This document shows, in pieces, positions 9,545 to 49,278 of a stretch of 64,000 nt of DNA; the first letter of the stretch is position 1, and every line of letters starts with the position of its first letter. Source of the stretch: Bacteroidota bacterium (lineage in GTDB: Bacteria; Bacteroidota; Ignavibacteria; UBA10030). Both the position numbers and the translations under genes were made by a program. The DNA is taken from contig JAKAJH010000004.1 in assembly GCA_021813905.1 (NCBI GenBank), forward strand, positions 53,654 through 117,653. The letters are read 5' to 3'. The notes below the pieces were generated by a model that saw nothing but the letters and a program-made list of their open reading frames with translations, ran no database searches and was not told where the DNA came from.

Positions 9545-9574
9545 GATGATCGAAACCGAACTCTGGAGACCATC

Positions 9575-13432: not shown

Positions 13433-13694
13433 ATACTACTCTCCCCCCTTCTCGTCCCACGCCCGATCCCAGCATGTGTCCCGGCGTCCGCTTCGGCCGA
13501 CGGAAATGCATCAGGAAAGGATTTCCGGAAACTGCCCCCCCCGGACGGTGCGAGGCACCTTAGGTGCGTGGCACGTTCAGGTGCTGAATATGCTGCAAAC
13601 GCAGCGTTTCTCCGATTCGCTGCCCGGACCGCCATTCACCGATCCCGTTCCACGGTTCGCCGAACAAGCCGCAACTCCGGCGAATTTCCTCGGT

Positions 13695-14099
13695 ATGTTG
13701 GAGGTGGACATCATCACTGACGGAGGACGCATGGATCGAGAACGTCGTCGCCTCTACTGGCACCTGGGTGTCGGTATCTTCCTGGTTGTCATCGGCACCC
13801 TGATGCTGCTTGACCGCTTCAATATCATCTATGTCGGATCGGTCTGGCATTTCTGGCCGGTGATCCTGCTCGCGGTCGGGTTGGCCCGCCTGGCAGACGC
13901 GCAGGAACGGCACGAGTACCGAAGCGCTTTCTTCTGGCTCTTCTTCGGCAGCTGGTTCCTCGCGAGCGAGCTGCACCTGTTCGGGCTTTCTTACCACAAT
14001 TCATGGCCGCTGCTGCTCATCGGCTGGGGCGTCAGCATTCTGATGCGCACCGGTCCGGAGAAACAGCATCATTCCGAGGAGACTGCCCATGGAAACTAA
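13695..14099 (+). CDS. LiaF-like multi-TM membrane protein (start uncertain: 13695 or 13731)
   Basis: Four hydrophobic segments (GVGIFLVVIGTLMLL, WHFWPVILLAVGLARL, FFWLFFGSWFLAS, SWPLLLIGWGVSIL). Overlaps the next gene by 11 nt. Confidence 0.35.
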   Translation: MLEVDIITDGGRMDRERRRLYWHLGVGIFLVVIGTLMLLDRFNIIYVGSVWHFWPVILLAVGLARLADAQERHEYRSAFFWLFFGSWFLASELHLFGLSYHNSWPLLLIGWGVSILMRTGPEKQHHSEETAHGN

Positions 14100-14787
14100 C
14101 GCGCGCTGGCACCTGCCCCGCCTGATCATCGGCTTCGGCATCGTTCTGATCGGTCTTCTGTTCCTGCTCAACAACCTCGACATCGTTGACGCGCATCAGT
14201 ACCTCCGGTTCTGGCCGGCCATCCTGATGCTTCTGGGCGTCGCCTACCTGATCCGGCCTGGCTCAGCCGGAGCGCGGGTGTGGGGAGCCGTCCTGCTCTT
14301 CGCCGGAACGGGCCTGCTTCTCGACCATATGGAGTACATTCATTTTCGTCTGTGGGATTTCTGGCCGGTCATTCTCGTCATTGCCGGCGGCAGCATCGTC
14401 CTGCAGGCTTACCGGTACCGGAACCGGCCATCGGCCGCTGCGGAAGCGTCGGATGATTCCACGATCACTGGTACCGCCGTGATGTCGGGCTTCAAGCGCG
14501 CGTCAAACGCCCAGGATTTCCGGGGCGGGCAACTCACCGCCGTCATGGGCGGCATCGAGCTGGATCTGCGGCGCGCATCAATGAAGTCCGGCGAGGCCGT
14601 CATCGACATCTTCACGATGTGGGGCGGCATCGAAATGCGCATCCCGGAAGACTGGACCCTGGTCAACCGGATGACGCCGTTCATGGGAGGAGTGGAGGAC
14701 GCCACCGTACCGCCGTCCACCGCCACGGGCAAACGCCTGGTACTCACCGGCACAGCCATCATGGGCGGTGTCGAAGTCAGGAACTGA
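14089..14787 (+). CDS. LiaF-like protein (N-terminal TM segments + C-terminal DUF2154-like beta domain)
   Basis: Membrane N-terminus, then a GGIELDLRRA...MWGGIEMRIPEDW...IMGGVEV repetitive C-terminus typical of LiaF/YvqF. Stop lies 4 nt before the kinase start. Confidence 0.45.
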   Translation: METNARWHLPRLIIGFGIVLIGLLFLLNNLDIVDAHQYLRFWPAILMLLGVAYLIRPGSAGARVWGAVLLFAGTGLLLDHMEYIHFRLWDFWPVILVIAGGSIVLQAYRYRNRPSAAAEASDDSTITGTAVMSGFKRASNAQDFRGGQLTAVMGGIELDLRRASMKSGEAVIDIFTMWGGIEMRIPEDWTLVNRMTPFMGGVEDATVPPSTATGKRLVLTGTAIMGGVEVRN

Positions 14788-14790
14788 CGG

Positions 14791-15852
14791 ATGCATCCCC
14801 TTCTGACCGGCCGCGGGACCATCGCGCTTTACGTCGCGGCCTGGCTCGTGATCGCGGCTCTGATCGCCGCGCTCCTGATCATCCCCGGGACGTTCGGGTG
14901 GAGCGCGGCAGCGATGCTCGTCCTGCCGATGGCCATCGTGTATGCGTTCATGTGCCTCTCATCGTACTACCTCTGCCGCGCATTTCCGCTCCTGAGCACG
15001 AACGTGCTCAAGGTTTTCATCGTCTTGCTGGTTGCCGCCGTGGCCACCAGCGCGGTCTGGGTGCTCGCCGGCAGCGCATGGGCAATGGCGCTCGGTTCGC
15101 TGTTCAACGATGCACAGTTCTGGGAACGTTATCGGCTTCAGTATCCTCTCCTCTTTGGAATCGGTGTCGTCCTCTCCCTGCTCGTTGCCGCCGTGCACTA
15201 CGTCATCATCGCATTCGAGCAGGCTCGTGCCGCCGAACGGCGCGCGTACGAACTTCGACTGCTTGCGCAGGGTGCTGAACTCAAGCTCCTTCGCGCTCAG
15301 ATCGACCCCCATTTCCTCTTCAACAGCCTCAATTCCGTCGCGGCGCTGATCTCGTCCGATCCGGACGGAGCGCGAACCATGAGTGTTCGACTCGCCGGCT
15401 TCCTGCGCGAAAGTCTCCGCCTCGGGGCACAGGAATTCATCGCCGTCCGCGAGGAACTCGCCCTCGCGCGTGATTTTCTGCGAATCGAACAGGTCCGCTT
15501 CGGCAAGCGATTGCAGGTGGAAGAGTCCGTCACGCCCGACGCTGAGACGGTCATCATTCCTTCCCTGCTCCTTCAGCCCCTGGTGGAGAATGCGGTCACG
15601 CACGGCATCGCTCATCTTGTCGACGGCGGAACGATCCGCATCGCGGCCCGTCGCACCGCCGCCCGTCTGATCGTCGAGGTCTGGAATCCCTGCGATGCCG
15701 ATCGCCCCCGAAGCAAAGGGCCCGGCATCGGCCTTCAGAACGTCCGCTACCGGCTCTCCACGCTTTATGGCAGCGACGGATCTCTGGAGGTTGAGGAAAC
15801 GAATCGCTATTTTCGGGTGATCGTGAGTCTTCCCTCAACCGCCGAACGCTGA
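14791..15852 (+). CDS. Sensor histidine kinase, 4TM + His_kinase (LytS/YehU-type) + HATPase
   Basis: QIDPHFLFNSLNSVAALI (His_kinase/PF06580-like) and LVENAVTHGI...GIGLQNV ATPase motifs, with 4 N-terminal TM helices. Confidence 0.8.
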   Translation: MHPLLTGRGTIALYVAAWLVIAALIAALLIIPGTFGWSAAAMLVLPMAIVYAFMCLSSYYLCRAFPLLSTNVLKVFIVLLVAAVATSAVWVLAGSAWAMALGSLFNDAQFWERYRLQYPLLFGIGVVLSLLVAAVHYVIIAFEQARAAERRAYELRLLAQGAELKLLRAQIDPHFLFNSLNSVAALISSDPDGARTMSVRLAGFLRESLRLGAQEFIAVREELALARDFLRIEQVRFGKRLQVEESVTPDAETVIIPSLLLQPLVENAVTHGIAHLVDGGTIRIAARRTAARLIVEVWNPCDADRPRSKGPGIGLQNVRYRLSTLYGSDGSLEVEETNRYFRVIVSLPSTAER

Positions 15853-16611
15853 ATGCCTTCCGACCGCCGATCCGCTCCGTTGCGCGCCGTCATCGTGGAT
15901 GACGAGACTCCGGCCCGGCAGCTCCTTCGCGAGTATCTTGGCGACTTTCCCGGCATCGATCTGGTGGGAGAATGCGCGAACGGATTCGAGGCGGTGAAGC
16001 TCCTCCCTGAACTGAAGCCGGACCTGCTCTTTCTCGACATTCAGATGCCGAAGCTCACCGGCTTCGAAGTGCTGGAACTGATCGAGCCGCCGCCGGCGGT
16101 CATCTTCGCCACCGCGTACGACCAGTTCGCGCTCAAGGCCTTCGAGATCCACGCCGTGGACTATCTGCTGAAGCCGTTCAGCAAGGAGCGTCTCGCGGAA
16201 GCGGTGGATCGGGCCCGCGAACGCCTCCATCATCACCGAAAGTTGCCTGTCGCCTCCCTCGCCACGGAGGCGCGCGGCACGGGGACACCGCTCGAGAGAG
16301 TGCTGATCAAGGAGGGCTCCCGGGTCCACGTTATTCCGGTCGATCGGATCGACTACATCGAGGCGGAAGACGACTACGTGTCCATCCATGCCGACGGCAA
16401 GAAGCATCTGAAGCAGCAGCGTCTGACGGAGCTGGAAGGCCTGCTCGATTCGCAGCGCTTTGTCCGCGTTCATCGCTCGTTTATCATCAACATCGACCGG
16501 ATCGCGCGGATCGAGCTGTACGCAAAGGACAGCCGTGTGGCAATCCTGAAGGACGGCAGACAGCTCCAGATCAGCCGTTCCGGATACGAGAAGTTGAAAG
16601 ATCGTCTCTGA
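15853..16611 (+). CDS. LytTR-family response regulator
   Basis: REC domain (VIVDDE...LLFLDIQMP...YLLKP) plus a C-terminal LytTR domain (VHRSFIINIDRI). ATG directly abuts the kinase stop. Confidence 0.85.
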   Translation: MPSDRRSAPLRAVIVDDETPARQLLREYLGDFPGIDLVGECANGFEAVKLLPELKPDLLFLDIQMPKLTGFEVLELIEPPPAVIFATAYDQFALKAFEIHAVDYLLKPFSKERLAEAVDRARERLHHHRKLPVASLATEARGTGTPLERVLIKEGSRVHVIPVDRIDYIEAEDDYVSIHADGKKHLKQQRLTELEGLLDSQRFVRVHRSFIINIDRIARIELYAKDSRVAILKDGRQLQISRSGYEKLKDRL

Positions 16612-20656: not shown

Positions 20657-21214
20657 GTGGAACAGCCGGAAGCATTCGAAGCGCGCCAGCAAATTCTCAC
20701 CGGGCTTCACGCCGGTGAATCGCTCCTCTGGAGCGGTCAACCGCCGACCGGGCTGCTCTTCCGACCCGGTGACTTCTTCATGGTCCCGTTCAGCCTCTTC
20801 TGGGGCGGCTTCGCATTCTTCTGGGAATACATGGCCATTCGTGGCGGCGCTCCGCTCGTCTTCTGCCTCTTCGGCCTGCCGTTCGTACTCATCGGCTTGT
20901 ATCTCATCATCGGTCGATTCTTCATCGACGCACGGATGCGTGACACCACGATCTACGCGATCACCAGCGAGCGCATCCTGGTGGAGACCGGACTGTTCAG
21001 CCGCCGAACGATCTCCGTCAGGCTCCGGGACGTTGGTCCGGTCACGCTGACCGAGCGTGCCGACGGTCGTGGGACGATCTCGTTCGCATCCGGCGTGCCG
21101 CTCTCCGGGCGACGTTCCGCGGCAGCCGGGATTACGTTCGAGCTCATCGAGCAGGCACGAAACGTTCACCAGATCTTTGAATCCGCACAGTCCCGTCATC
21201 GCGCAATATCCTGA
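20657..21214 (+). CDS. Membrane-anchored bacterial PH-domain (bPH_2/YdbS-like) protein, GTG start
   Basis: Two TM helices, then IYAITSERILVETGLFSRRTISVRL. Confidence 0.45.
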   Translation: MEQPEAFEARQQILTGLHAGESLLWSGQPPTGLLFRPGDFFMVPFSLFWGGFAFFWEYMAIRGGAPLVFCLFGLPFVLIGLYLIIGRFFIDARMRDTTIYAITSERILVETGLFSRRTISVRLRDVGPVTLTERADGRGTISFASGVPLSGRRSAAAGITFELIEQARNVHQIFESAQSRHRAIS

Positions 21215-21222
21215 GACTTCCT

Positions 21223-22011
21223 ATGACACCCAATACACCGGCGTCTGACCGGAACCCCGTTCTTCTTTCCGCCATGCACTGGAAAGAAGTGAAAGACCGG
21301 GAATTCGATCTGGTTGTGCTCCCGTGGGGCGCGACGGAACCACACAACCTGCATTTGCCCTTCGGCACCGACATTATCGAGTCCGAGGTGATCGCCGAAC
21401 GGTCGGCGCGCTATGCCGCCGATCGCGGAACGCGCATCGCCGTTCTCCCGACCATTCCGTACGGTGTCAACACCGGTCAGATGGACCTCCGGCTGACGAT
21501 CTCCGTGAATCCCAGCACGCAGCTTTCAATCCTCCGCGACATCGTCGAGTCACTGTCCGGTCAGGGGATCCGGCGGTTGGTGATCCTGAACAGTCACGGC
21601 GGAAATGATTTTCGGCCGGCGATCCGCGAGCTGAAGCCGCGCTTTCCCCGGATGTTTCTCGGCCTCATCAACTGGTACCAAATGCTGGATCAGCGGCGGT
21701 ACTTCACCGCGCGGGACGATCACGCCGGAGAGATGGAAACGAGCATTTTGCTCGCGGTGGCACCGTCGCTCGTCCTTCCGCTGAACGAAGCCGGGGAAGG
21801 GACGGAGCGGCCCTTCCGCCTGAAGGCCCTGCGGGAGCGCTGGCTCTGGACGCCGCGTGCCTGGTCCCGGGCAACGGAGGACACGGGCGTCGGGAATCCG
21901 AAGAACGCGCGGGCAGAGAACGGCGAGCGATTTCTCGCCGATCTCACCGCCGCGATCGGTGACGCGTTCGTCGAGCTCGCCGCCGCCGATCCCGAAGAAC
22001 TCTACGAGTGA
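21223..22011 (+). CDS. Creatininase-family amidohydrolase
   Basis: LPWGATEPHNLHLPFGTD...LNSHGGN...EMETS motifs. Confidence 0.75.
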   Translation: MTPNTPASDRNPVLLSAMHWKEVKDREFDLVVLPWGATEPHNLHLPFGTDIIESEVIAERSARYAADRGTRIAVLPTIPYGVNTGQMDLRLTISVNPSTQLSILRDIVESLSGQGIRRLVILNSHGGNDFRPAIRELKPRFPRMFLGLINWYQMLDQRRYFTARDDHAGEMETSILLAVAPSLVLPLNEAGEGTERPFRLKALRERWLWTPRAWSRATEDTGVGNPKNARAENGERFLADLTAAIGDAFVELAAADPEELYE

Positions 22012-36593: not shown

Positions 36594-36710
36594 TCAACGC
36601 AGCAGGAACACGCGTGACACAACGGCCAGGATGAGCGCCAGAGCCGCCAGTGAGATGAGAGCGATCACCATGCGGCGGCGGTGCTGCAGATTCTGAGGGG
36701 GAGTGTTCAT
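36594..36710 (-). CDS. 38-aa single-TM micro-protein (candidate)
   Basis: MNTPPQNLQHRRRMVIALISLAALALILAVVSRVFLLR. GGGAGG RBS 5 nt upstream, high GC3. Lies in an otherwise empty 725-bp gap. Confidence 0.25.
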   Translation of the reverse strand: MNTPPQNLQHRRRMVIALISLAALALILAVVSRVFLLR

Positions 36711-37197
36711 CGGAGCCTCCCGGCAATCAGCGCCGGAGAACAGAGCGCGTGTGCTGACGGGCGTTGACCTGCGCGTTGTGTATCAGCGACTCACAAACGC
36801 CGCACAGAAGGATCGCGTACCGCGACCCGCCGACACACCGTTGGATCTTCCACACCCATGGCACGATTTGACGACATCGCGGGCAACGGTGCGGGCGGTG
36901 TTCCACCCGGACATCGATTCCCGATGGCATTGTCCCCCGGATCCGTCCGGCATCCCGTCGCACCATCCTCGCTCGTCTCCGCGTCGTGTTTCTTCTTGGC
37001 AGCACGGTACACAACGGAACCCATCCGTTCATCCGAATTCCGATAAGCGGCGAATCCCGTCGTCCGGCGGCAAACCGACCGGCAGCACCCACCCGCAGAC
37101 ACTCCATCCGACCAGCCGCTCGTCGAGTCCTGCTGCCGCTTGGCCGGGAGGTCTTTACTCTTGCGCAAGAAAGCGTCACATTGCTGCCGGAACGGCA

Positions 37198-38286
37198 ATG
37201 AGACGATTGCGCGACATTCTGCGGGGCGACTTTCGCACGCTCGGATTCTGGCATTTTCAGATCACCGGGTGGCTGCTGTTGTACGCAGGCGACATCGTCC
37301 TGATCATTGCCCGCGGGCGATCCCTGTCCGAGGGATTGACCGAGGCCTGCGAAACGCCGGTCGCCTTCCTTCTTTCCCTGGGACTGCGCCGGATTTACAC
37401 GCGCCTGGACTACAAGAGGCTCTCCGTGGTATCCCTGATCGCCTATCTCACCGTCTGGTCGCTGATCATTACGGGGGTCTGGTACGTGTTGATCGCCGCG
37501 ATCTGGTACTTCGCGATGAGCGCACGCATCGGCCTGGCGATGTTCGATCCCGGCTATGTGTTCCGGTGGCTGAATTATCTCGCACCGCTCTGGTTCTCCT
37601 GGAGCGCGCTCTACTTCGGGATCAAGTACTGGCGGGATTGGATCGACGAGAAGGAGCGCGCCCGCATCGCCACCGCTCTCGCGCAGAAGGCCCAGCTTCA
37701 GATGCTGCGGTACCAGCTCAATCCGCATTTCCTGTTCAACGCGCTCAATTCGCTCCGCGCGCTCATCGACGAGGACAAACGCCTCGCCAAAGGGATGATC
37801 ACGGAACTATCTGAATTTCTGCGCTACTCCCTCGTTTCCCGGCGCGCCACGAGCGTCCCGCTGCGCGACGAGCTCGACGCCATCCGGCACTACCTGGCCA
37901 TCGAGAAGAAACGGTTCGAAGACAAGCTCCAGGTATCGTTCGCCGTTGATCCGAAAGCCGAGGATGTTCCGGTCCTCAGCTTCCTCATTCATCCGCTTGT
38001 GGAGAACGCGGTCAAGTACGGCATGAAGACTTCCCCGATGCCGTTGCGGCTGAAATTGGAAGCGTCCGTCAATGACGGGGGATTGACGGTGGATGTGTGG
38101 AATTCGGGCCGGTGGCTCGACGAGAGCGATGCGGCGAAGCCCGGGGCCGGAACCGGTACGGGCCTCGAGAACACACGGGCCCGATTGGCCAACGCGTATC
38201 CCGGACGACACCATGTGGACGTGATCACCGAAGGCAATGCTGTTCACGTCCGGCTCCGCATCGACGAGATCCTGACCGAGGCGTGA
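37198..38286 (+). CDS. Sensor histidine kinase, 4TM + His_kinase + HATPase (paralog A)
   Basis: LNPHFLFNALNSLRALI, LVENAVKYG, GTGLEN. The upstream in-frame region 36703-37197 is low-complexity and probably non-coding. Confidence 0.75.
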   Translation: MRRLRDILRGDFRTLGFWHFQITGWLLLYAGDIVLIIARGRSLSEGLTEACETPVAFLLSLGLRRIYTRLDYKRLSVVSLIAYLTVWSLIITGVWYVLIAAIWYFAMSARIGLAMFDPGYVFRWLNYLAPLWFSWSALYFGIKYWRDWIDEKERARIATALAQKAQLQMLRYQLNPHFLFNALNSLRALIDEDKRLAKGMITELSEFLRYSLVSRRATSVPLRDELDAIRHYLAIEKKRFEDKLQVSFAVDPKAEDVPVLSFLIHPLVENAVKYGMKTSPMPLRLKLEASVNDGGLTVDVWNSGRWLDESDAAKPGAGTGTGLENTRARLANAYPGRHHVDVITEGNAVHVRLRIDEILTEA

Positions 38287-38289
38287 CGC

Positions 38290-39456
38290 ATGCGAGTACG
38301 TCTGACTCATCTTCGGGACTGGAGCTTCTGGCACTACCAGATTGCCGGGTGGCTGGTGTTTTGCGCCGGCAACCTTGCCGTCAATCTTCACGCGATGGGA
38401 TGGAATTCACGCGTCGTCGCCAGCCTTTGCCTTCAGGTGGTCGCGGCCGTCTCCCTCACACTCGGCCTGCGGCGTTACTATCGCCGGTTGCCGCATCGCG
38501 AGCTCGCACTGCCGGGCATCGTGTTCCGCATCGTGTTCTGTTCGTTCCTCGCGACGGTGGTGCTGCACGCGGCATTTCTCGGCATCGAGACGCTCTTCTT
38601 CGGAGCGAAATTCCTCGCGAAGGCCACTGCACATATCGCCTTCACGCTGCAGTGGATCGCGATCCTGTTCCCGGTGATGGTGGGCTGGAGCGCACTGTAT
38701 TTCGGCATCAAGTTCTATCGGGAATGGACCACCGAGCGCATCCGCGTTGAACAGGCCACCGAAGCGGCTCAGCGTGCCCAGTTACAGGCGCTTCGGTACC
38801 AGTTGAATCCGCATTTCCTGTTCAACACGCTGAACTCCGTGCGCGCCCTCGTGGACGAAGACAGCCGCCTGGCCAAGCAGATGGTCACCGAACTGGCGGA
38901 GTTCCTCCGCTATTCCCTGGTCAGCCGGAACAAGACCGAGCTCACGCTCAACGACGAACTGAATGCGATCCGACTGTATCTTTCCATCGAGCAGCGACGT
39001 TATGAGGACAAGCTCTCGGTGGCGTTCGACGTCGATCCCGATGCCGGCGACGTGCCGATGCCGAGCTTTCTGATCCATCCCATCGTCCAGAATGCCGTCA
39101 AGCACGGCCTCCGGACGAGCCCGATGCCGCTCCAGATCCGGATATCTGCGCACCGGACCGACACCAGGCTTCGGATCGAGGTCGCCAATTCGGGTTCGTG
39201 GATCGAGCCCGTGGAGGAAGAGCAGGACGCCGAGCTGGAGTTCGGTGCGGGACTCGAAAATGTTCGGGCCCGGTTGCAGGAAACATATTCCGGGCAACAT
39301 CACTTCGCGACGGAAGAACAGGACGGATTCGTCCACGCGGTTCTGGAAATACCGTTGCCGACGGGATCTCCGGGAGAAGCCGCTCCGGCGGTGACCTCCG
39401 GCCTGCTGTCGGGCTGGAACCGTCGACGCGCGCATCCGGAAAAGGTACCTTCATGA
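38290..39456 (+). CDS. Sensor histidine kinase, 4TM + His_kinase + HATPase (paralog B)
   Basis: Same motifs as paralog A; the two proteins are collinear. Start is 3 nt after the stop of paralog A. Confidence 0.8.
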   Translation: MRVRLTHLRDWSFWHYQIAGWLVFCAGNLAVNLHAMGWNSRVVASLCLQVVAAVSLTLGLRRYYRRLPHRELALPGIVFRIVFCSFLATVVLHAAFLGIETLFFGAKFLAKATAHIAFTLQWIAILFPVMVGWSALYFGIKFYREWTTERIRVEQATEAAQRAQLQALRYQLNPHFLFNTLNSVRALVDEDSRLAKQMVTELAEFLRYSLVSRNKTELTLNDELNAIRLYLSIEQRRYEDKLSVAFDVDPDAGDVPMPSFLIHPIVQNAVKHGLRTSPMPLQIRISAHRTDTRLRIEVANSGSWIEPVEEEQDAELEFGAGLENVRARLQETYSGQHHFATEEQDGFVHAVLEIPLPTGSPGEAAPAVTSGLLSGWNRRRAHPEKVPS

Positions 39457-40178
39457 AGAAGAAGCTTCGGGCTCTGATCGTAGACGACGAACGGCTCGCA
39501 CGCAAGGATCTGCGCACGCTGCTGATGGACGTGCCGACCGTCGAGGTCGCCGGTGAAGCGGACAGTGTTTCGTCTGCGGTCGCCATGATCGCGGAGATCG
39601 ACCCCGATCTGATCTTTCTGGACATCCAGATGCCGGGAGAATCGGGATTCGATCTGCTCGAGAGGACGGATCTTCGTGCCCGCGTTATCTTCGTGACGGC
39701 ATTTGACGAATACGCCATCCGCGCGTTTGAAGTCGATGCGGTGGACTATCTGCTGAAACCGGTCAGTCCGCAGCGGCTGGCGGCGGCCATTGAGCGGCTC
39801 GACCGGAAGACCGCCCCGCCGAACGGCAGCCGCCGCACGCTCTCCTTCGAGGATACGCTGTTCCTCTCCATCAATAATCACCTGAAATTCGTAAAGGTCA
39901 GCACGATCCAGTGCATCCAAGCCGCGGCGGATTATTCGGAGATCATGCTGTCTGACGGAAAGCGCGGTCTGGTTCAAAAATCGATGGCGGAGTGGGAGCA
40001 GCGGCTTCCCGCCGCACAGTTCTGCCGCATCCACCGCTCGACGATCATCAATCTGCAGGCCGTCGGCCGCGTGGAAGAGTGGTTCGGGGATTCGTATCAC
40101 GTCTATCTGGCGGGCGTGGAATCCCCGCTGGTCATGAGCCGCCGCTACGCCGTCCGGCTCAAAGAACGCCTCAGCTGA
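39453..40178 (+). CDS. LytTR-family response regulator 1
   Basis: LIVDDERLAR...LIFLDIQMP...YLLKP...IHRSTIINL; the ATGA overlaps the HK-B stop. Confidence 0.85.
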   Translation: MKKKLRALIVDDERLARKDLRTLLMDVPTVEVAGEADSVSSAVAMIAEIDPDLIFLDIQMPGESGFDLLERTDLRARVIFVTAFDEYAIRAFEVDAVDYLLKPVSPQRLAAAIERLDRKTAPPNGSRRTLSFEDTLFLSINNHLKFVKVSTIQCIQAAADYSEIMLSDGKRGLVQKSMAEWEQRLPAAQFCRIHRSTIINLQAVGRVEEWFGDSYHVYLAGVESPLVMSRRYAVRLKERLS

Positions 40179-40246: not shown

Positions 40247-41044
40247 ATGACGTCGTCCTCCCACCATCTGCGCATTCTCATCGCTGACGACGAGCGATTG
40301 GCCCGCACGAGCCTGCGCCGCGCGATCGACGAGCTCTCGGATGTTTCCGTCGTATCGGAATGCGACAGCGGACGCGAGGCCGAGCAGGCCATCCGCACAC
40401 TCCAGCCAGACGTTGCGTTTCTTGACGTGGATATGCCCGATCGGAACGGTCTCGACGTGGTCCGCGGCCTCGGTCCGGAACACGCCACCAAGATCATCTT
40501 CGTCACCGCGTATGAGGAGTATGCCCTGGAGGCGTTCCAGGTCCATGCGTTCGATTATGTGCTCAAACCGATCGATGGCGATCGTGTTCGACTTGCCGCG
40601 GAGCGTGCCCGCGAGCAGATTGTGCTCGAGAAGCACGGGGACGGACACGCTGTGCCCGACCCGGAGCTCTCGACGGTCCGGAGCGACGCCACGCAGTTGC
40701 ATCCCCGTTATCTCGACCGTCTCACCGTCCAGGCCGGCGAACGACTCACACTGGTCGATGTTGCGGATGTGGATTGGGTGGAAGCGTGGGGAGACTATGT
40801 GCGCATCCATTTGCACGGCCGGACGTTCACGATCCGCGAGAAGATCAGCGATCTCGAACGCCAGCTCGATCCCGGACGGTTTGCCCGCGTACACCGCTCT
40901 ACCATCGTACAGATTGCGCGGATCAAGGACCTGGTCCCGCTACTGCACGGCGACTATGAACTGACCCTCGCCGATAACACGCTGCTGCGTCTCAGCCGCA
41001 CGTATCGGCACCGCCTTTCCGAGCTGCTTCAGCATCATCTGTAA
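40247..41044 (+). CDS. LytTR-family response regulator 2 (orphan)
   Basis: ILIADDERLAR...AFLDVDMP...YVLKP...VHRSTIVQI. Confidence 0.85.
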   Translation: MTSSSHHLRILIADDERLARTSLRRAIDELSDVSVVSECDSGREAEQAIRTLQPDVAFLDVDMPDRNGLDVVRGLGPEHATKIIFVTAYEEYALEAFQVHAFDYVLKPIDGDRVRLAAERAREQIVLEKHGDGHAVPDPELSTVRSDATQLHPRYLDRLTVQAGERLTLVDVADVDWVEAWGDYVRIHLHGRTFTIREKISDLERQLDPGRFARVHRSTIVQIARIKDLVPLLHGDYELTLADNTLLRLSRTYRHRLSELLQHHL

Positions 41045-41211
41045 TCCACCGTTTCGCCTCCGCAGACCGTATTCGCTTCGTGTCCGTCCGCTCTGACCGT
41101 CCGCCGGACCGGCTCATCGTATTCCTGCAACCTTCCATCCCCCGGGCGCGTCTTTCGGGATAGAGACACCGGGAACCAATCATCACTCACTACTCGGTAC
41201 AGGAGGTCGCA

Positions 41212-41682
41212 ATGAAGACTCTGATGCTGTTCATGGTGCTCGCGGTGACTGTCGCCGCCGCGCAGCCGGCCGGATCCTCCGAGTCGGTGCTCCCCCCCAA
41301 CGTCAACAAAGCCATTGTGGAAGAGAACCTGCTGATCGGGCTTGCGTCGGGCAATCTCGGATTGCAGCGCAGCGCGGCGCTGATGCTCGGCAAGATCAGG
41401 TCCGACCGGGCAGTGATTCCCCTCATGGCCGTTCTCCACAACAGCGACCAGGAAAGCCTGCGGATCGCCGCGGCCTACGCCCTCTGTCGCATCGGTGACG
41501 CTCGCGGGACATTCGCCGTCCGCCGGGCTGTCAAGTTCGACGAATGCTGCCGGGTTCAGAATACCTGTGCCTGGTATTACGAAACCATGGTCAGCCCCGG
41601 CACGTTTGCCTTCGTCGGTATCAACACCGCGCCGGTGGACATCGCCGCCATTGCCGAACCGATCCTGGAAGCCGCTCCCTGA
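41212..41682 (+). CDS. Secreted HEAT-repeat (PBS-lyase-like) protein
   Basis: Signal peptide MKTLMLFMVLAVTVAAAQ; repeated LGxxxxxRAVxPLxxxL HEAT_2-like units. Confidence 0.55.
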   Translation: MKTLMLFMVLAVTVAAAQPAGSSESVLPPNVNKAIVEENLLIGLASGNLGLQRSAALMLGKIRSDRAVIPLMAVLHNSDQESLRIAAAYALCRIGDARGTFAVRRAVKFDECCRVQNTCAWYYETMVSPGTFAFVGINTAPVDIAAIAEPILEAAP

Positions 41683-41799
41683 CGAGACCCGATGCCTGCG
41701 CCGCGGCGGCATCGCAGCGCAGGTGCGAAACTCCTGGTCCTGCGTCACGATTTGCGAACATCGCGGCCGCCTACGGGCGGCCGCGGCATATCCGGCACA

Positions 41800-42531
41800 A
41801 TGATGACACCAACTCCGATTCTCCATGCCGTGATCGTCGACGACGAGCGGCTCGCGCGGGCAAGTCTTCGGTCCCTGCTGGCGGATCACCCGGATGTCGC
41901 GGTCGTCGGAGAAGCCGACACGGTTCGCAGCGCCCGGCGGCTGATTCTCGATCACCGGCCGGACGTCGCGTTCCTTGACATCTGCCTGGCGGGAGAAAGC
42001 AGCTTCGACGCTATGACAGAACTGTCTGCGTCGGTCCGGGTTGTGTTCGTCACGGGATACGCGGAATACGCGACCCGGGCGTTTCGCGTCGGCGCCATCG
42101 ACTACCTGCTGAAGCCCGTCGATCCGGCGCACCTGACAGAGGCCCTGGACCGCATCCGGCGACTTGTGGGGCGCGAGCCGGAAGACCCGCCACTGGACGC
42201 CGAGGATACGATCTTTCTGCGTTTGGGTGGGCGGTACCAGTTCGTGCGCGTGCGGGCCATCCGGTGCATCACGGCAGACGGTCCATACTCCCGAGTCGCG
42301 ATGGACGACGGACGCAAAGGGATCGCTTCGCCAGCGCTGAAGGAATGGGAAGAACGGCTGCCGGGCCGGCTGTTTGTACGAGTGCACCGCTCCGCGCTCG
42401 TCAACCTGGAGCACGTGGACCGCGTCGAGCCGAACGGCGATCACTCGTACTTGCTGCACATGAAGGGCGGCTGTGAGCCGTTGCCCATGAGTCACCGGTG
42501 CTTCACGCGGATCCGGACGCTGATGGGATGA
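41800..42531 (+). CDS. LytTR-family response regulator 3 (orphan)
   Basis: VIVDDERLAR...AFLDICLAGESS...YLLKP...VHRSALVNL. Confidence 0.8.
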   Translation: MMTPTPILHAVIVDDERLARASLRSLLADHPDVAVVGEADTVRSARRLILDHRPDVAFLDICLAGESSFDAMTELSASVRVVFVTGYAEYATRAFRVGAIDYLLKPVDPAHLTEALDRIRRLVGREPEDPPLDAEDTIFLRLGGRYQFVRVRAIRCITADGPYSRVAMDDGRKGIASPALKEWEERLPGRLFVRVHRSALVNLEHVDRVEPNGDHSYLLHMKGGCEPLPMSHRCFTRIRTLMG

Positions 42532-42557
42532 TCGTGCCGGTTATCCGCACTTCCGGA

Positions 42558-42776
42558 CGTTCGTACGACAAACGACCACGTTCATTCAAAACCGTTCGGC
42601 CGGACCGCCCTCCGGTCGTATCTTAAACCATCAGCAGGGTGCGGTCCTGAATGAACGAGGATGCTCTGCTGCCAAACTTGACGCGTCTCTCACAGGTCAC
42701 CTCCTTCTCCCCTGTTCCGCGTCAAGCGAGATTCACCGGCAGCAGAGATCCTCGTTTCGTTCCCGATTCGTTCCCG
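42558..42776 (+). promoter_or_regulatory. Cluster of (A/C)CGTTC direct repeats in the susC upstream/leader region (candidate LytTR-regulator sites)
   Basis: CGTTC at 42558, 42579, 42594, 42758 and 42769 (the last two within the tandem TTCGTTCCCG-N1-TTCGTTCCCG); spacings of 21, 15 and 11 nt. Confidence 0.25.
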
Positions 42777-42818
42777 GCTCGCATCGCCGATCGCTCACTC
42801 ACTACAGGAGGCCTGACC

Positions 42819-45713
42819 GTGAAAAGACCAACCATGTTCTCGCTGCTGCTGTGCGCATTGCTCTGCGCACATTGCATTCTGGTTGCGCAGACGACGGTCC
42901 ACGGCCGGGTCACGGACGCCAGATCCGGCGCCGGACTGCCCGGCGTGGCCGTGCACATACAATCGCTGGGTGTTGGCACGTACACCAACGCCGACGGGGA
43001 GTATGAATTCGTCGTCCCGGCTGAGAAGGTTCGTCGGGACGCCGTGATCCTCACCGCGAAGCTGATGGGGTATAAAGAGAAGACCCAGCGGATCATTCTC
43101 ACGGCGGGTCCGATTTCAGCAGACTTCGCGCTCCTGGAGGATGTCTTCCAGAGCGACGAGGTCGTCGTAACCGGCATTGCCTCAAAGACAGAGAAGTCCG
43201 TTGCGGAGGTTGCCGTCGCCCGCATCGACGCGGCCGGACTTCAGGATCTGAGCGCGTACGCCGGCGTCAACCAGCTCGTGGACGGGAAGATCCCCGGCGT
43301 TCAAATGACGACGGCGTCCGGGAACATCGGATCCGGATGGCGGTTCTTCGTCCGCGGCGGTGGCGGACTGAACGGGAACGGCCAACCTGTCATTTACGTC
43401 GATGGCACGCGTATCGAAAACGACGAGGTCGGCTCGACCTGGGGCGTGGGCGGACAGGCGATCAGCACACTCGCCAATCTGAACACGAACGACATCGAGA
43501 AGATCGAATTCCTGAAAGGGCCGGCGGCGGCGTCAATGTACGGCGCGAACGGTTCCAACGGGGTCATGCTGATCACCACGAAAGCCGGCGCACTCGCACA
43601 GACTCCCGGCGGCATGAACGTAAACTACAACTTCACATATGGCTGGAACGAACAGCTGACGCCGTACAGCAAGGATGAGTACCTCAACGCCGACACGGCC
43701 AATGCCATGTTCCGCAAGGGACTCATCCGCGCTCACTATCTGAGCCTGGCCGGCGGAAACAACACGCTGCGCTATTTCACGTCGTTTGAAAGCCGGCGTG
43801 AAGACGGCCACTTTCCCCTCACGTGGGGAGACCGGAATACCGTCCGCCTGAACCTGACGGCAGTGCCGGCACAGAATGTCTCGGTGAAACTCAATGCAGG
43901 GTACGCGAAGAACCGCATGAATGTCCCCAATCAGGATAACTCCGCCTGGGGTATTCTCGGCAACACGCTGCTCGTCGCGAATCCGTGGTTCTTCGTCCCG
44001 AAGAATGATATCACCCGACTGGTGGATGTGGTTGACGGTACGCAGTTCATCGGCGGTGCGGCGATGACGTACTCACCGGTGGCCGATCTCGAGCTGAAAG
44101 GCGGCGTCGGGATCGACAACAGCACATGGCGGCAGGACGACATTGCGCCGTTCGGCGGCCAGTTCGGCAGCGTGACACGCGGAGCCACGAACATCTACGA
44201 CCGTCTGAACCGGCAGATCACATATGATTTCGGCGCCGCGTATGCCTGGTCGCCGTTCGACAATCTGTCGATCCGCTCCATCGCCGGCGGTCAGTTCTTC
44301 GACCGACGCTTCAACAGCATCGAGGTGAACGCCGAGGAATATTCGACGCCGCTGATCACGGATCTCGGATCGGCCGGAAAGATCACGGGATACGGCGAGA
44401 CGTTCCGGAACACGCGGGACGGCGGTCTCTACACGGAACACTCGGCCGGATATCTCGATCAGTACTTCCTGACGCTCGGCGTACGGCAGGACTTCGCCAG
44501 CGTCATCGGCAAGTCGGCGCCGTCGATCGTCTATCCGAAGGCAAGCGCCGCATGGAGGCTGGACAGGTACGAGTTCTTCCCGTCCGACGTTGTCCAACTG
44601 CTCAAATTGCGCGCCGCATACGGCGAGAGCGGTGTGCTGCCCCGGCTTCTCGACGGTGCCAGCGTCTACTATACCGCCCTCGTCTCGGCGTACGGGGCGG
44701 GGGGTGTCCCGACCGTGTGGGGCAATCCCGCCATCAAGCCGGAACGCGTGCGCGAAGTGGAAGCGGGCATCGACGCCGAGGTCGCCAACGCGGTCTCACT
44801 CGAATTCACAGGCTACACCCAGAAGGCGACCAACTCCATCGTGGATATGCCGGTGGCGCCGTCGCTGGGACTCTCCACGACCCGGCCGTTCAACATCGGC
44901 GAAGTGGACCTCTGGGGATTCGAGTCGATGGTGCAGGTGACACCGCTGCGCTCGGACGACTACGACCTGCGCATCGGTCTTATCTGGAACTTCCAGCGGA
45001 ACGAGGTGAAGAGCATCGGCGGTCGGGGTGCCATCACCTCCGACAATAATGTGATCATGGAAGGCAAGCCGAAATATGAGTTCCTGGCGTACACCTCCAC
45101 GGCGGCGTTCGATTCCGCCGGCGTGTATGCGGGTGCCGTGCCGTCCGCAGACAAAGTCGATCTCGGCAATCCGATCCCGAAGTACACCGGATCGGTCACG
45201 GTCGACTTCCGCTTCCTGAAGAACTTCACGTTCTACGCGTTCGGGGAGTGTGGACTCGATATGAAGCGGTTCAACTATACGCGCCAGTTCTCGATGCTGA
45301 TGGGCGGCAACGCCGAGCGCATCCGGATGCGTGCGCAGCTCGGCTTCGCACCGTCGTCCTCGGTGACACCGCTGACGCCGGGCACGCCCGAGTATCGCGC
45401 CGTGGCGGAGAAGTACGGCCGCCTGAATCCCAACTTCGACGGGAATTTCATCGAAGACGCCGACTACTTCGTCATTCGTGAGGTAAGCCTGAGCTACAAC
45501 TTTCGCGATGCGCTCAACGCCCTCAGCCCGTTCTCGGTACTCAAAGGACTGACGGTGGGTGTGTCCGTGCGGAACTTGTGGCGCACGACGAAGTACTCCG
45601 GGGTCGACGTGGAAACAAACTACGCCGGAAGCCGGACCGTGACAGTGGGAGAGGAATTCCTGACACTTGAAACCCCGCGGACCTGGAATTTCTGGGTCAA
45701 AATGGGACTGTAA
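42819..45713 (+). CDS. SusC/RagA-family TonB-dependent outer-membrane transporter
   Basis: GTG start preceded by AGGAGG; signal peptide; carboxypeptidase-regulatory-like N domain (TTVHGRVTDARSGAGLPGV); TonB-box region; 22-strand barrel length; C-terminal ...NFWVKMGL. Confidence 0.85.
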   Translation: MKRPTMFSLLLCALLCAHCILVAQTTVHGRVTDARSGAGLPGVAVHIQSLGVGTYTNADGEYEFVVPAEKVRRDAVILTAKLMGYKEKTQRIILTAGPISADFALLEDVFQSDEVVVTGIASKTEKSVAEVAVARIDAAGLQDLSAYAGVNQLVDGKIPGVQMTTASGNIGSGWRFFVRGGGGLNGNGQPVIYVDGTRIENDEVGSTWGVGGQAISTLANLNTNDIEKIEFLKGPAAASMYGANGSNGVMLITTKAGALAQTPGGMNVNYNFTYGWNEQLTPYSKDEYLNADTANAMFRKGLIRAHYLSLAGGNNTLRYFTSFESRREDGHFPLTWGDRNTVRLNLTAVPAQNVSVKLNAGYAKNRMNVPNQDNSAWGILGNTLLVANPWFFVPKNDITRLVDVVDGTQFIGGAAMTYSPVADLELKGGVGIDNSTWRQDDIAPFGGQFGSVTRGATNIYDRLNRQITYDFGAAYAWSPFDNLSIRSIAGGQFFDRRFNSIEVNAEEYSTPLITDLGSAGKITGYGETFRNTRDGGLYTEHSAGYLDQYFLTLGVRQDFASVIGKSAPSIVYPKASAAWRLDRYEFFPSDVVQLLKLRAAYGESGVLPRLLDGASVYYTALVSAYGAGGVPTVWGNPAIKPERVREVEAGIDAEVANAVSLEFTGYTQKATNSIVDMPVAPSLGLSTTRPFNIGEVDLWGFESMVQVTPLRSDDYDLRIGLIWNFQRNEVKSIGGRGAITSDNNVIMEGKPKYEFLAYTSTAAFDSAGVYAGAVPSADKVDLGNPIPKYTGSVTVDFRFLKNFTFYAFGECGLDMKRFNYTRQFSMLMGGNAERIRMRAQLGFAPSSSVTPLTPGTPEYRAVAEKYGRLNPNFDGNFIEDADYFVIREVSLSYNFRDALNALSPFSVLKGLTVGVSVRNLWRTTKYSGVDVETNYAGSRTVTVGEEFLTLETPRTWNFWVKMGL

Positions 45714-45727
45714 GGAGGCGACCGACT

Positions 45728-46945
45728 ATGAAAACGACTCTCAAATATCTTGTGGCGTTCCCGCTCCTGGCGCTGTTCCTGTCGGCATGCGAAAGTTTCA
45801 TCAACGATGTGGAACCGCTCAAGGATTATGCCGCGAACGACAAGCTGAACTCGGAAGAGCACATGGACTTCCTGATCGTCGGCGTACAATCGCAGTTCGC
45901 GGACGCCTCGAGCCAGGTGGCCGGCCTGTCGGATCTGCTCTCCGATCAGCTGATCTTCACCAACATGATGCCCCTGGCAACGTATCCGCAATATGCGGAG
46001 ATCGAGCCCGGGCAAATTCTGCTGGACAATAACAGCGTCGCCGCCGTGTTTCAGTCCGTCTGCCGCCTGCGCCGGGTTGCCGATGACCTCGTGCAGCGTA
46101 CCGGGGACATCGCCTTCAGCGACACGGCGAAGCGGCACCAGGCGTATGCGGTCGGATATCTGTACGGGGGACTGGCACGCTACTATCTCGCCACGTCGTT
46201 CGGAATCAACCCGACCTCGCCGGGCGGCGTGATCGACGGCGGTCCGTTCATCGCCCAGTCAGACCTTCTCGACGACGCGGTCGCGCATTTCGAAGCTGCC
46301 GTTGCGCATCAGTTCAGCCTGACGGAACAACGGATCACCAACTCCCTCATCGCGCGCGCGTATCTGGCGAAGAAGGACTATGCCCATGCCGCGACGTTTG
46401 CCGCACAAGGCATGCTGCAGGGCGAGGATCCGTTCGTGTGTCTTTATAACGACGTCTCGCAGAACTTCTACTACACCGACGCCGGTTACGGGCGCCAACA
46501 GATGGGCGTGGCGGACCGGTTCGCGGCCTACATCGCCGCCGATCCGGCGGAAGCCGTCCGCATACCGCTCGACTCTCTGATCGGGCGGGACGGCGGAACC
46601 TATTACTTCCAGGTGAAGTACCCGCTCGCCGGGAGCAGCTTCCCGATCATGACCTGGCAGGAGAACAGCCTGATGTCGGCAGAGTGCGCCCTTCGGGGAT
46701 CGGGTGCGGGCGATGCGCTCGCGTTGGTCAACGACGTGCGCGGCTCTCACGGCCTCAGCAGTCTCAGTTCGGTCGATCTTGCCGGCCTCATGGTCGAGCG
46801 GGACAAGGAGCTGTTCTGCCAAGGCGACCGACTGATGGATGAGAATCGCGGTGCCGTGCCGTGGCATCTGGGAACCGGCGACTGGCACGTCCTTCCGATT
46901 CCACGCGCGGAACGGGATGCAAATCCCAACCTGCCGCCCTTGTGA
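45728..46945 (+). CDS. SusD/RagB-family lipoprotein
   Basis: Lipobox LALFLSAC; 14 nt after susC; helical/TPR-like. At 405 aa it is shorter than typical SusD proteins. Confidence 0.6.
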   Translation: MKTTLKYLVAFPLLALFLSACESFINDVEPLKDYAANDKLNSEEHMDFLIVGVQSQFADASSQVAGLSDLLSDQLIFTNMMPLATYPQYAEIEPGQILLDNNSVAAVFQSVCRLRRVADDLVQRTGDIAFSDTAKRHQAYAVGYLYGGLARYYLATSFGINPTSPGGVIDGGPFIAQSDLLDDAVAHFEAAVAHQFSLTEQRITNSLIARAYLAKKDYAHAATFAAQGMLQGEDPFVCLYNDVSQNFYYTDAGYGRQQMGVADRFAAYIAADPAEAVRIPLDSLIGRDGGTYYFQVKYPLAGSSFPIMTWQENSLMSAECALRGSGAGDALALVNDVRGSHGLSSLSSVDLAGLMVERDKELFCQGDRLMDENRGAVPWHLGTGDWHVLPIPRAERDANPNLPPL

Positions 46946-46982
46946 TCAACGCACGATGACGCTGTCCCGTACGGCGAACTCA

Positions 46983-47011
46983 GGCCCCGCACCCGCGGGG
47001 CCTTTTTGTTT
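46983..47011 (+). terminator. Rho-independent terminator after susD
   Basis: GGCCCCGC-ACCC-GCGGGGCC followed by TTTTTGTTT. Confidence 0.7.
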
Positions 47012-47086
47012 GAGAACCGCCGCCGTCTCTTCAATTGACTGTCTGGCAATATTCATCTACCATCCGTGGGGTAGAACCCGCACCGT

Positions 47087-47773
47087 ATGCGAATCCTCGT
47101 CGTCGAAGATGAACAGAAAGTCGCCCGTTTCCTCAAGCGCGGCCTTGAGGCGGAAGGCTACCGCGTCGAGACCGCAGCCGACGGAAAGTCAGGCGAGACG
47201 CTCGCGCGTTCGAACACATTCGATCTCGCCATCCTGGACGTCGTGCTCCCCCGCAAGAACGGTTTCGAAATCCTTCGCGATCTCCGGAATGAAGGCCACA
47301 AGCTGCCCGTGCTGATGCTCACCGCCCGCAGCGCCACGGAAGACATCGTCAGCGGCCTGGACCTCGGCGCCGACGACTACCTGACAAAACCCTTCGCCTT
47401 CGATGAACTCCTGGCCCGGATCCGACTTCTGCTCCGCCGGCAGGTACAGTCCCGCACGCGTCTGACCGTGGGGGATCTGGTGCTGGACACGATCAGCCAC
47501 GAGGCGGTGCGCGGCGGAAAGAAGATCGAGTTGACGAGCCGCGAGTACAAGATGCTCGAGATCTTCATGCGCAATCCCGGGAAGCTCCTGAGCCGTGCGG
47601 ATCTTGCCCGGGAGGTGTGGGGATACGACTTTGACCCCGGCACCAACGTGGTCGACGTGTATGTCAATCACCTTCGCAAGAAGGTTGATCAGGGGTTCGA
47701 AATCAGACTGCTGCAGACAGCGCGCGGCAAGGGATACTTCATCACCGACCGATCGCCCGCCTCCCTCTTATGA
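47087..47773 (+). CDS. OmpR-family response regulator
   Basis: MRILVVEDE ... winged-helix C-terminus (LTSREYKMLEIFMRNPGKLLSR). Confidence 0.85.
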   Translation: MRILVVEDEQKVARFLKRGLEAEGYRVETAADGKSGETLARSNTFDLAILDVVLPRKNGFEILRDLRNEGHKLPVLMLTARSATEDIVSGLDLGADDYLTKPFAFDELLARIRLLLRRQVQSRTRLTVGDLVLDTISHEAVRGGKKIELTSREYKMLEIFMRNPGKLLSRADLAREVWGYDFDPGTNVVDVYVNHLRKKVDQGFEIRLLQTARGKGYFITDRSPASLL

Positions 47774-49278
47774 CCTTTCTTCACTCCATCCGCTGGCGGC
47801 TCACGCTGTGGTACGCTGTCGTCTTCGGTGTGACGATCATCGGAGCCGGCATCACCGCCTACTTCATCACACGGTCGACGATGTTGGACAACCTGGATCG
47901 TTCGCTGCGGAACGAGGTCAAATGGGTCAATGAATTCATCGAGCCGCGCGCCAAGCGCATCCCGCTCAAACGGGCCGCGTTGCGCGAGCTGGAGGAACTG
48001 AAGCGCTCCGCCGCTGCCCAGACCGATGAGAGCGACCAGGCGTCCGACGTCTCCGACGAGGAACGCGCCGCCAGCGACGAGATGTGGGAACAGATCTACC
48101 AGCACACCCTCCTCAGCCCCCGGCGCCATTTCATTCAGATCCTCGACCGGAACGGGGACCTGCTGTACCGGTCCCAGAGTCTCCGGGGATACGCCATCCG
48201 CTATGACGACATTCCGTACCAATGGATCAACGTCGTGTCAACGCAGCTCGAAGACGGCGAGGATATTCGCCTGGCTCTGATGCAGAACAACTACGTCAAG
48301 ATATTCGTCGCCTATCCCCTTGAACCGGTACACGAGGTGCTCGACAGTGTCTTTACGAACGTCCTGCTGATCGTCCCCATCGCCCTGCTGATCTCCATTG
48401 TCGGCGGCTGGTTCCTGGCGCACAAATCACTGAAGCCCGTCGATAATCTGACCCGAGCGGCCCGGGAGATCACGGCACGGAATCTGAACCGACGCCTGCC
48501 GGCACTCCGCGGAGACGATGAGCTGGGCCGGCTGACGGAACAGTTCAACGACATGATCGGCCGGCTGCAGGCTTCGTTTGAGCAGGTCCAGGAGTTCTCC
48601 GCGGACGCTTCGCACGAACTCCGCACACCGCTGACCATCATGCGAGGGGAGATCGAGGTTGCGCTGCGGAACGCGCGCCTGTCGCGCAGCACGCGGGAAA
48701 TCTTTGAGAGCGTGCATCACGAGATCATCCGGATGTCCTCCATCGTCGAAAGTCTGCTGATCCTGACCAAGGCCGAGACGGGACGTCAGGCGTTCACGTT
48801 TTCCGCCATCGCCCTCGACGAGCTGGTGCGGCAGATCGCCGAGGATGCGCGCGTCCTCGCCGAACCGAAGCACATCCGCGTCAAGGAAGAGCGGATGGAC
48901 CACGTCATGGTCGCAGCGGACGGCGCCCGTCTGCGTCAGCTCCTCCTGACGCTCGTGGACAATGCCGTCAAGTTCACGCCGGCGCGGGGCACAGTGACGC
49001 TGTCCGTTGTCCACGCCGGATCGACCGCGCACATTCGCGTGAAGGACACCGGCATCGGAATTCCCCGCAAGGATCAGGAGCGGATCTTCGAACGATTCTA
49101 TCGCGTCGTGCGTGACGATGATTCCGGGGGGACAGTGCCGGAGGGAAGCGGACTCGGCCTGTCGATCGCCCGGTGGATCGCCGAAGCACATAACGGTACG
49201 ATCTCCGTCGAAAGCCGTGAGCGACGCGGAAGCATGTTCACAGTCTCCCTGCCGCTTTCTCCCCCGTTGAAGGGCTGA
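47770..49278 (+). CDS. Sensor histidine kinase (TM-periplasmic-TM-HAMP-HisKA-HATPase)
   Basis: SHELRTPLT H-box, N/G1/G2 boxes; 4-nt overlap with the regulator. Confidence 0.8.
   Translation: MTFLHSIRWRLTLWYAVVFGVTIIGAGITAYFITRSTMLDNLDRSLRNEVKWVNEFIEPRAKRIPLKRAALRELEELKRSAAAQTDESDQASDVSDEERAASDEMWEQIYQHTLLSPRRHFIQILDRNGDLLYRSQSLRGYAIRYDDIPYQWINVVSTQLEDGEDIRLALMQNNYVKIFVAYPLEPVHEVLDSVFTNVLLIVPIALLISIVGGWFLAHKSLKPVDNLTRAAREITARNLNRRLPALRGDDELGRLTEQFNDMIGRLQASFEQVQEFSADASHELRTPLTIMRGEIEVALRNARLSRSTREIFESVHHEIIRMSSIVESLLILTKAETGRQAFTFSAIALDELVRQIAEDARVLAEPKHIRVKEERMDHVMVAADGARLRQLLLTLVDNAVKFTPARGTVTLSVVHAGSTAHIRVKDTGIGIPRKDQERIFERFYRVVRDDDSGGTVPEGSGLGLSIARWIAEAHNGTISVESRERRGSMFTVSLPLSPPLKG

Follow-up and report, generated by a model that had tools for sequence, protein, structure and literature searches.

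A CGTTC cluster ahead of a susC-like gene may combine a candidate LytTR site with one strand of a conserved, predicted leader hairpin

The window, by which we mean the whole 64-kb stretch of DNA that was analysed, carries a susC-like gene and a weakly SusD-like partner gene directly behind a cluster of LytS/LytTR two-component genes. The order of the cluster was read from called genes on L001-L004. The genes of the locus and the terminator of the susC-susD unit are as follows:

36697-38286 and 38290-39456, + strand: two LytS-type kinases (profile matches, His_kinase hits)
39453-40178, + strand: LytTR response regulator, first of three (called gene)
40247-41044, + strand: LytTR response regulator, second of three (called gene)
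41212-41682, + strand: HEAT-repeat protein
41800-42531, + strand: LytTR response regulator, third of three (Pfam Response_reg and LytTR)
42819-45713, + strand: SusC-like TonB-dependent receptor, 964 aa, start GTG 42819 (Pfam CarbopepD_reg_2, Plug and TonB_dep_Rec_b-barrel)
45728-46945, + strand: 405-aa susC partner with weak SusD similarity (Pfam SusD_RagB, E = 5.5e-4, below the curated cutoff)
46982-47003, + strand: intrinsic terminator closing the susC-susD unit, a 9-bp stem with eight G-C pairs followed by TTTTTGTTTG
47087-47773, + strand: OmpR-type (OmpR/PhoB) regulator, downstream of susD
47770-49278, + strand: histidine kinase, following the OmpR-type regulator

The last LytTR regulator gene is separated from the susC-like gene by a spacer of 288 nt. 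A first-pass annotation, made from the sequence alone, had reported five CGTTC repeats here and had called the LytTR gene beside them an orphan; two LytS-type kinases and two further LytTR genes lie immediately upstream on the same strand, so that description was mistaken.

Six assemblies of the window's lineage carry the locus with an identical spacer in a single orientation, which speaks against an invertible promoter or variation in repeat number. A protein search with SusC found no sequence between the query's own 90% cluster and relatives at 55% identity, which came from Ignavibacteria, and a search for susC relatives in a collection of genome contigs found none. Since the protein search was empty in that range, the only informative relative is L005 (GCA_037932095.1), a diverged genome whose SusC belongs to the same 90% protein cluster, whose genes are ~83% identical in nucleotide sequence and which retains the LytTR regulator, susC and the OmpR-type regulator with its kinase. 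Nothing else in the protein collection exceeds 52% identity to the LytTR regulator of the window, the named top hits being regulators of Acidobacteriota and Gemmatimonadota, and with homologues this distant a comparative regulon test was impossible. The Ignavibacteria relatives were compared at three loci (L007, L009 and L010; ~5800-10200 in each), and each orthologous susC examined is followed by a SusD-like partner of 402-404 aa. Upstream of these orthologues lies a pseudouridine synthase gene (PseudoU_synth_1), and downstream are genes for a radical-SAM UPF0004 protein, an S1-domain protein and cytidylate kinase. In Ignavibacteria the pair therefore sits among housekeeping genes, in a conserved synteny that points to a core outer-membrane transporter and away from a locus dedicated to a glycan.

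The public gene calls (P0001 and P0123) start SusC at ATG 42651 and give a product of 1020 aa, with 56 extra residues running across the leader hairpin described below. We place the start at GTG 42819, seven nt after an AGGAGG, because a 1-nt deletion in L005 breaks the frame of the ATG 42651 extension, the gene caller starts the L005 gene at the GTG, and the orthologue N-termini (MKRP.../MRKP...) begin at the position matching GTG 42819. The deposited 1020-aa product accordingly holds 56 residues translated from leader RNA, and the public call is corrected here. The annotation's description of some repeats as lying within the leader of susC holds only with the start moved to the GTG; with the ATG start it does not. 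With this start, the features of the spacer are:

42557-42566, + strand: CGTTC copy 1, candidate LytTR half-site ACGTTCGTAC
42578-42587, + strand: CGTTC copy 2, candidate LytTR half-site ACGTTCATTC, 21 nt after copy 1
42593-42597, + strand: CGTTC copy 3
42619-42624, + strand: TATCTT, a possible -10 element
42637-42775, + strand: long interrupted RNA hairpin of the susC leader (nested inverted repeats; fold), with stems 42637-44/42768-75, 42649-53/42758-62, 42655-62/42748-55, 42664-73/42738-47, 42677-85/42718-26 and 42692-96/42711-15
42697-42710, + strand: apical loop UCACCUCCUUCUCC, 14 nt, with the anti-Shine-Dalgarno-like CACCUCCUU (fold; invariant in L005)
42756-42776, + strand: tandem TTCGTTCCCG-A-TTCGTTCCCG, CGTTC copies 4 and 5, forming the 3' strand of two basal stems
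42795-42805, + strand: TCACTCACTAC box, an 11-mer directly 5' of the susC Shine-Dalgarno
42799-42822, + strand: small hairpin holding AGGAGG (42806-42811) and the GTG start (42819), predicted in both species

On the + strand CGTTC begins at 42558, 42579, 42593, 42758 and 42769, with start-to-start gaps of 21 nt (copies 1-2), 14 nt (copies 2-3) and 11 nt (copies 4-5). Four of these positions and the tandem agree with the first-pass annotation, which had the third copy one nucleotide off, at 42594, and hence gave the spacings as 21/15/11. Its statement that the cluster is far denser than expected does not stand, since the pentamer is common and clusters easily by chance. The window has 143 CGTTC on its + strand and 165 on its - strand, roughly double what mononucleotide composition predicts; when 143 sites were placed at random, a cluster of five in 220 nt arose in 16% of trials, and 120 of the 1942 strand-specific pentamers in the window form at least one such cluster. 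Counted on both strands, the density of CGTTC is 5.8/kb in intergenic and 4.8/kb in coding DNA, and 4.25/kb in intergenic DNA once the susC spacer region is removed. The motif is thus about as frequent between genes as within them, the outcome that the annotation itself had named as telling against its proposal. The repeats fare no better when taken singly, as neither the 10-mer tandem nor the 21-nt-phased 6-mer is rare: exact 10-mer repeats at offsets of 9-25 nt number three in the window (42756, 38516 and 48363) against a composition-based estimate of ~1.5, and exact 6-mer repeats at offset 21 number 49, or 0.22 per 288 nt. The 10-mer repeats at 38516 and 48363 have offsets of 12 and 21, and both lie within histidine-kinase genes. 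Another cluster of five CGTTC in 220 nt, at ~21081-21258, is largely within predicted coding sequence, which shows that five copies can gather in this genome with no regulatory meaning.

Comparison with L005 separates the copies. L005 keeps copy 2, reads CGCTC at copy 1, has lost copy 3 (where it reads CCGGTGTG), and reads CATTC at copy 4 and CGCGC at copy 5, and the tandem repeat is gone. Over the 7-kb alignment, conservation is lowest (63-65% identity) in the 90 nt that hold copies 1-3; copy 3 is probably a chance occurrence, judging from its loss within this stretch. Strong conservation starts at ~42614, TCGTATCTT being invariant, and the most conserved stretch of the whole alignment is the hairpin core at 42651-42740, with 95-97% identity as against ~83% in the genes. 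No other copy of the spacer was found in the 64-kb window, which argues against a mobile or repeated element.

The leader hairpin (~140 nt) has a minimum free energy of -56.9 kcal/mol (z = -6.57), and none of 200 shuffled sequences was equally stable. Its segments 42649-73 and 42738-62 make up a nearly perfect predicted duplex of ~24 bp. A consensus of the two sequences over 42625-42830, which includes the ribosome-binding-site hairpin, comprises 55 pairs, none of them broken. Six of the 55 carry one-sided substitutions, and all six remain paired on the + strand through G·U or A-U; by our own reading of the core, where four pairs are substituted, one of the four would remain paired in RNA of the - strand. 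The stems show no double compensatory change between the two sequences compared. CGTTC copies 4 and 5 belong to this structure. In copy 4, CGUUC (42758-62) pairs with GAAUG (42649-53), and the CAUUC of L005 turns a U·G pair into U-A; in copy 5, UCGU (42768-71) and CCC (42773-75) pair with GCGG (42641-44) and GGG (42637-39), and UCGCGCCC of L005 still pairs. At the tandem as a whole L005 reads TTTCATTCTTCA-TCGCGCCCGG, so that the repeat is lost and the pairing kept. Selection therefore appears, from this comparison, to preserve the pairing of the hairpin and not the CGTTC words. The structure itself is a prediction drawn from folding in silico and from conservation. Since the three Ignavibacteria susC loci have neither a LytTR or other regulator gene as neighbour nor a long hairpin upstream, the LytTR neighbour and the long hairpin are both lineage-specific.

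Other identities for the element were considered. Rfam 15, searched at gathering thresholds over the whole window, gave no match, and the only Rfam hit at E <= 10, a snoRNA match on the - strand, was spurious (16.8 bits against a 37-bit cutoff). A 22-mer of the leader loop, searched in collections of genome contigs and metagenome contigs, had no matches. A small + strand ORF from ATG 42651 has its frame broken in L005, with most substitutions changing the amino acid, and a - strand ORF of 20 aa behind AAGGAGG loses its stop there. By this comparison the leader element is not coding, as small ORFs on either strand are preserved neither in length nor in frame.

The top of the hairpin, 32 nt, is invariant between the window and L005, and its apical loop holds the only exact copy of CACCTCCTT in the window. 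The loop region (42686-42717) is predicted to form a duplex of -22 kcal/mol with the ribosome-binding site (42795-42830), in which its partner is AGGAGG-CC-UGACC; a duplex this stable was equalled by 0.2% of shuffled loops and by 3.2% of genomic 32-mers, and it would need two small stems to be opened. The susC Shine-Dalgarno and start codon have a predicted hairpin of their own, which pairs UCAC with GUGA and CAGG with CCUG; it is predicted for both species, a single pair changing from C-G to U-G. GUG and part of AGGAGG are thus paired, in silico, within a conserved hairpin, the arrangement of a sequestered Shine-Dalgarno. Strong Shine-Dalgarno sites are rare in this genome: 13 of 159 GGAGG words in the 64 kb stand ahead of the start of an ORF of >=80 aa, and three of these belong to the HEAT-repeat gene, susC and susD. 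Because CACCUCCUU in the loop would pair with the AGGAGG of susC, and the Shine-Dalgarno and GUG are predicted to sit in their own small hairpin, the most likely role of the leader in this model is control of translation initiation or mRNA stability of the susC-susD pair.

The TCACTCACTAC box has two exact copies in the 64 kb (41183-41193 and 42795-42805), and each lies just 5' of a strong AGGAGG, that of the HEAT-repeat gene and that of susC. L005 retains only CACTCA, and in the Ignavibacteria orthologue L007 the corresponding position reads ACTCACAATCAGAGGG. The box may, from its position, be a shared translation-initiation or regulatory element.

Leaders that sequester the Shine-Dalgarno are familiar from RNA thermometers (ROSE, fourU) and from the expression platforms of riboswitches. 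The susC leader resembles them in that a predicted hairpin encloses the Shine-Dalgarno and start codon, and a conserved CCUCC loop upstream can pair with the Shine-Dalgarno. It differs in the placing of this anti-Shine-Dalgarno, which is carried by the apical loop of a long hairpin ~100 nt upstream and would form a pseudoknot on pairing, and in having no Rfam match. In Bacteroides-type systems, susC/susD pairs are controlled by hybrid two-component systems, by SusR or by ECF sigma/anti-sigma pairs. The present locus is similar in that a susC-susD pair has a dedicated regulator gene beside it, but here the neighbour is LytS/LytTR, the SusC has no STN-type N-terminal signalling domain and the Ignavibacteria orthologues have no regulator. 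A full-text literature search returned no report of LytTR regulators controlling susC.

Copies 1 and 2 differ from the others in geometry. Sites of LytTR regulators consist of two imperfect repeats, direct or inverted, each 9-11 nt long and set 11-13 nt apart (PMC4847170; PMC4064291). In the window, ACGTTCGTAC-N11-ACGTTCATTC forms imperfect 10-nt direct repeats that match at 8/10 positions, with an 11-nt spacer and a 21-nt period; in L005, ACGCTCGTAC-N11-GCGTTCGTGC keeps the same phase with a repeat match of 7/10, and its copy 1 half-site is 9/10 identical to that of the window. Repeat length and spacer thus fall within the LytTR range in both species, whereas the 14- and 11-nt start-to-start spacings of the other copies do not. 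Between window and L005 the half-sites are identical at 16/20 positions and the spacer at 3/11 (Fisher p = 0.007), and copies 1-2 are the top-scoring repeat of 20-22-nt phase in the 93-nt upstream block of both species, a score equalled in 0.8% of column-shuffled alignments; this footprint and column-shuffle test was picked after the data had been seen and covers the single comparison with L005. The arrangement is shared with described LytTR operators (AgrA P2/P3, the ComE boxes and the YpdB site GGCATTTCAT-N11-GGCATTTCAT), which likewise have two imperfect 10-nt direct repeats at 11-nt spacing, and the candidate stands upstream of a gene that adjoins LytS/LytTR two-component genes. It is unlike them in sequence, bearing no relation to the motifs of AgrA or YpdB; it takes in just two of the five copies, and it does not recur in the window. 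The exact form CGTTC-N16-CGTTC occurs once, at copies 1-2, and a search of the 64 kb with the consensus CGYTCRTNC returned 22 hits, with no other phased pair; the recurrence at other promoters that a regulon would show, for instance through autoregulation, is therefore absent from the window. The likeness it drew to the AlgR box of Pseudomonas aeruginosa, CCGTTCGTC, is also slight. The best match, ACGTTCGTA, shares the central CGTTCGT and agrees at 7/9 positions, and its two mismatches put it beyond the one-mismatch variants of known AlgR sites; the 7-mer is common in this genome, with at least seven copies in the window, five of them outside the susC spacer and the other regions listed as intergenic. 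AlgR sites need not be phased direct repeats (PMC4064291).

On this evidence copies 1-2 may be a LytTR-type operator. One of the three adjacent LytTR response regulators would then bind them as a dimer and would activate a promoter with a weak -35 element, for which TATCTT at 42619-24, adjoining the onset of conservation with L005, could serve as the -10; promoter, binding and direction of control are all parts of the model. LytTR sites lie immediately upstream of the -35 region of the promoter they govern; were this hexamer the -10 of such a non-consensus promoter, the half-sites would centre, by our estimate, near -49 and -70. TATCTT also occurs in three other regions listed as intergenic. 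A scan for the sigma-70 consensus over 41000-47200 gave a single hit, ahead of the OmpR-type gene, and none in the susC spacer, and the Bacteroidetes-type TAnnTTTG motif was absent from the regions listed as intergenic. An ECF-type reading of the tandem repeat, GGAAC-N16-CGTC on its - strand, was set aside, since by eye it has no -10 partner.

Taken together, we favour a composite reading, in which the spacer holds an ordinary promoter and a leader, copies 1-2 are a candidate LytTR operator, copy 3 is chance, and copies 4-5 are the 3' strand of the hairpin; a neighbouring LytTR regulator would activate transcription, and the leader would then act post-transcriptionally, by sequestering the Shine-Dalgarno or as a stability determinant. 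The five copies would be no single regulatory array and would not belong to one system. We consider this reading evenly balanced between being right and wrong as a whole. A more specific version is offered tentatively and is, in our judgement, doubtful. In it, a cis-regulatory leader RNA (~140 nt) particular to this lineage, its anti-Shine-Dalgarno apical loop invariant, would control translation or stability of a SusC/SusD-like pair that in Ignavibacteria lies among housekeeping genes and that here has been placed behind a LytS/LytTR cluster, with a 21-nt-phased LytTR operator upstream.

The alternative that survives best removes DNA-level function from the words altogether: no CGTTC copy binds a protein, copies 1-2 included, and the function of the spacer lies in the leader hairpin and an unrecognised promoter. 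Nothing in the cluster statistics is out of the ordinary, copies 1-3 belong to the stretch with the lowest conservation, the copy 1-2 site is unrepeated in the window, and the half-sites (16/20 identical) do not differ significantly in identity from the remainder of the upstream block (45/73; p = 0.18), all of which fits such an account. What it leaves to coincidence is that a 21-nt-phased repeat was kept in both lineages although its spacer was replaced, to an extent seen in 0.8% of column shuffles, that the geometry of copies 1-2 fits LytTR sites and that three LytTR genes adjoin them. We regard pure chance as somewhat unlikely, though it deserves serious weight.

The hairpin might instead be an attenuator, ending transcription with the help of the U-rich CGUUC tail, with the copy 2 region (42576-42594) acting as anti-terminator by pairing with 42642-42660. 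The two segments do form a 19-nt inverted repeat, 84% complementary, whose duplex in the window (-32.9 kcal/mol) is equalled by 0.9% of shuffles, and the stem is followed by a moderately U-rich tail (UUUCGUUCCCGAUUCGUUCC in the window, UUUCAUUCUUCAU in L005). However, the corresponding upstream pairing in L005 matches that of shuffled sequences (42%), and the anti-terminator was not adopted on account of this difference. In addition, the terminator scan made no call at the hairpin, which is far larger than typical terminators, has a loop of well over 8 nt and is followed in the window by 4 U in the first 8 nt by our count; it thus does not show the combination of G+C-rich stem, short loop and U tract that marks an intrinsic terminator. 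Attenuation is improbable.

The view of the first-pass annotation, that all five copies bind the neighbouring LytTR regulator, could point to five same-strand copies in 219 nt beside LytTR genes and to the 7/9 match to the AlgR core, but L005 has lost four of the five as CGTTC, keeping copy 2, while retaining the regulator and susC; the 14- and 11-nt spacings misfit, RNA pairing explains copies 4-5 better and the pentamer is common, so that its idea of LytTR direct repeats holds for the geometry of copies 1-2 and fails for copies 3, 4 and 5, and the five-site array is very improbable. Regulators of the OmpR/PhoB family bind tandem direct repeats with a period of ~10-11 nt, and the tandem TTCGTTCCCG, an exact 10-mer with an 11-nt period and the sole repeat at offset 11 in the window, could conceivably be a site for the OmpR-type regulator (47087-47773) that follows the operon together with its kinase; we think this highly unlikely, as L005 keeps regulator and kinase but not the repeat, no similar motif is seen by eye ahead of the regulator's own gene, and downstream of the repeat, which sits between hairpin and Shine-Dalgarno, no promoter can be recognised.

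The CGTTC cluster as first reported matters little, being within chance and mostly unconserved. Two things of modest use are left: the single candidate LytTR operator, in a phylum-level group for which we found no described LytTR site, and the structured leader, undescribed and strongly conserved, that precedes a SusC/SusD-like pair in a genome with few strong Shine-Dalgarno sites. Should this leader prove regulatory, it would exemplify post-transcriptional control of a transporter of the SusC type outside the Bacteroidia.

Two further observations concern the LytS/LytTR genes of the window. A second LytS/LytTR pair lies at 14788-15852 and 15853-16611 (region 13332-16611), preceded by two LiaF-like membrane proteins, and brings the LytTR regulators in the window to four in all. 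Divergent from the first LytS-type kinase of the susC locus, on the - strand at 36594-36710, is an ORF of 38 aa (MNTPPQNLQHRRRMVIALISLAALALILAVVSRVFLLR) with one hydrophobic helix and a GGGAGG 6 nt ahead of its ATG; this ORF may encode a small membrane protein with a link to the two-component genes.
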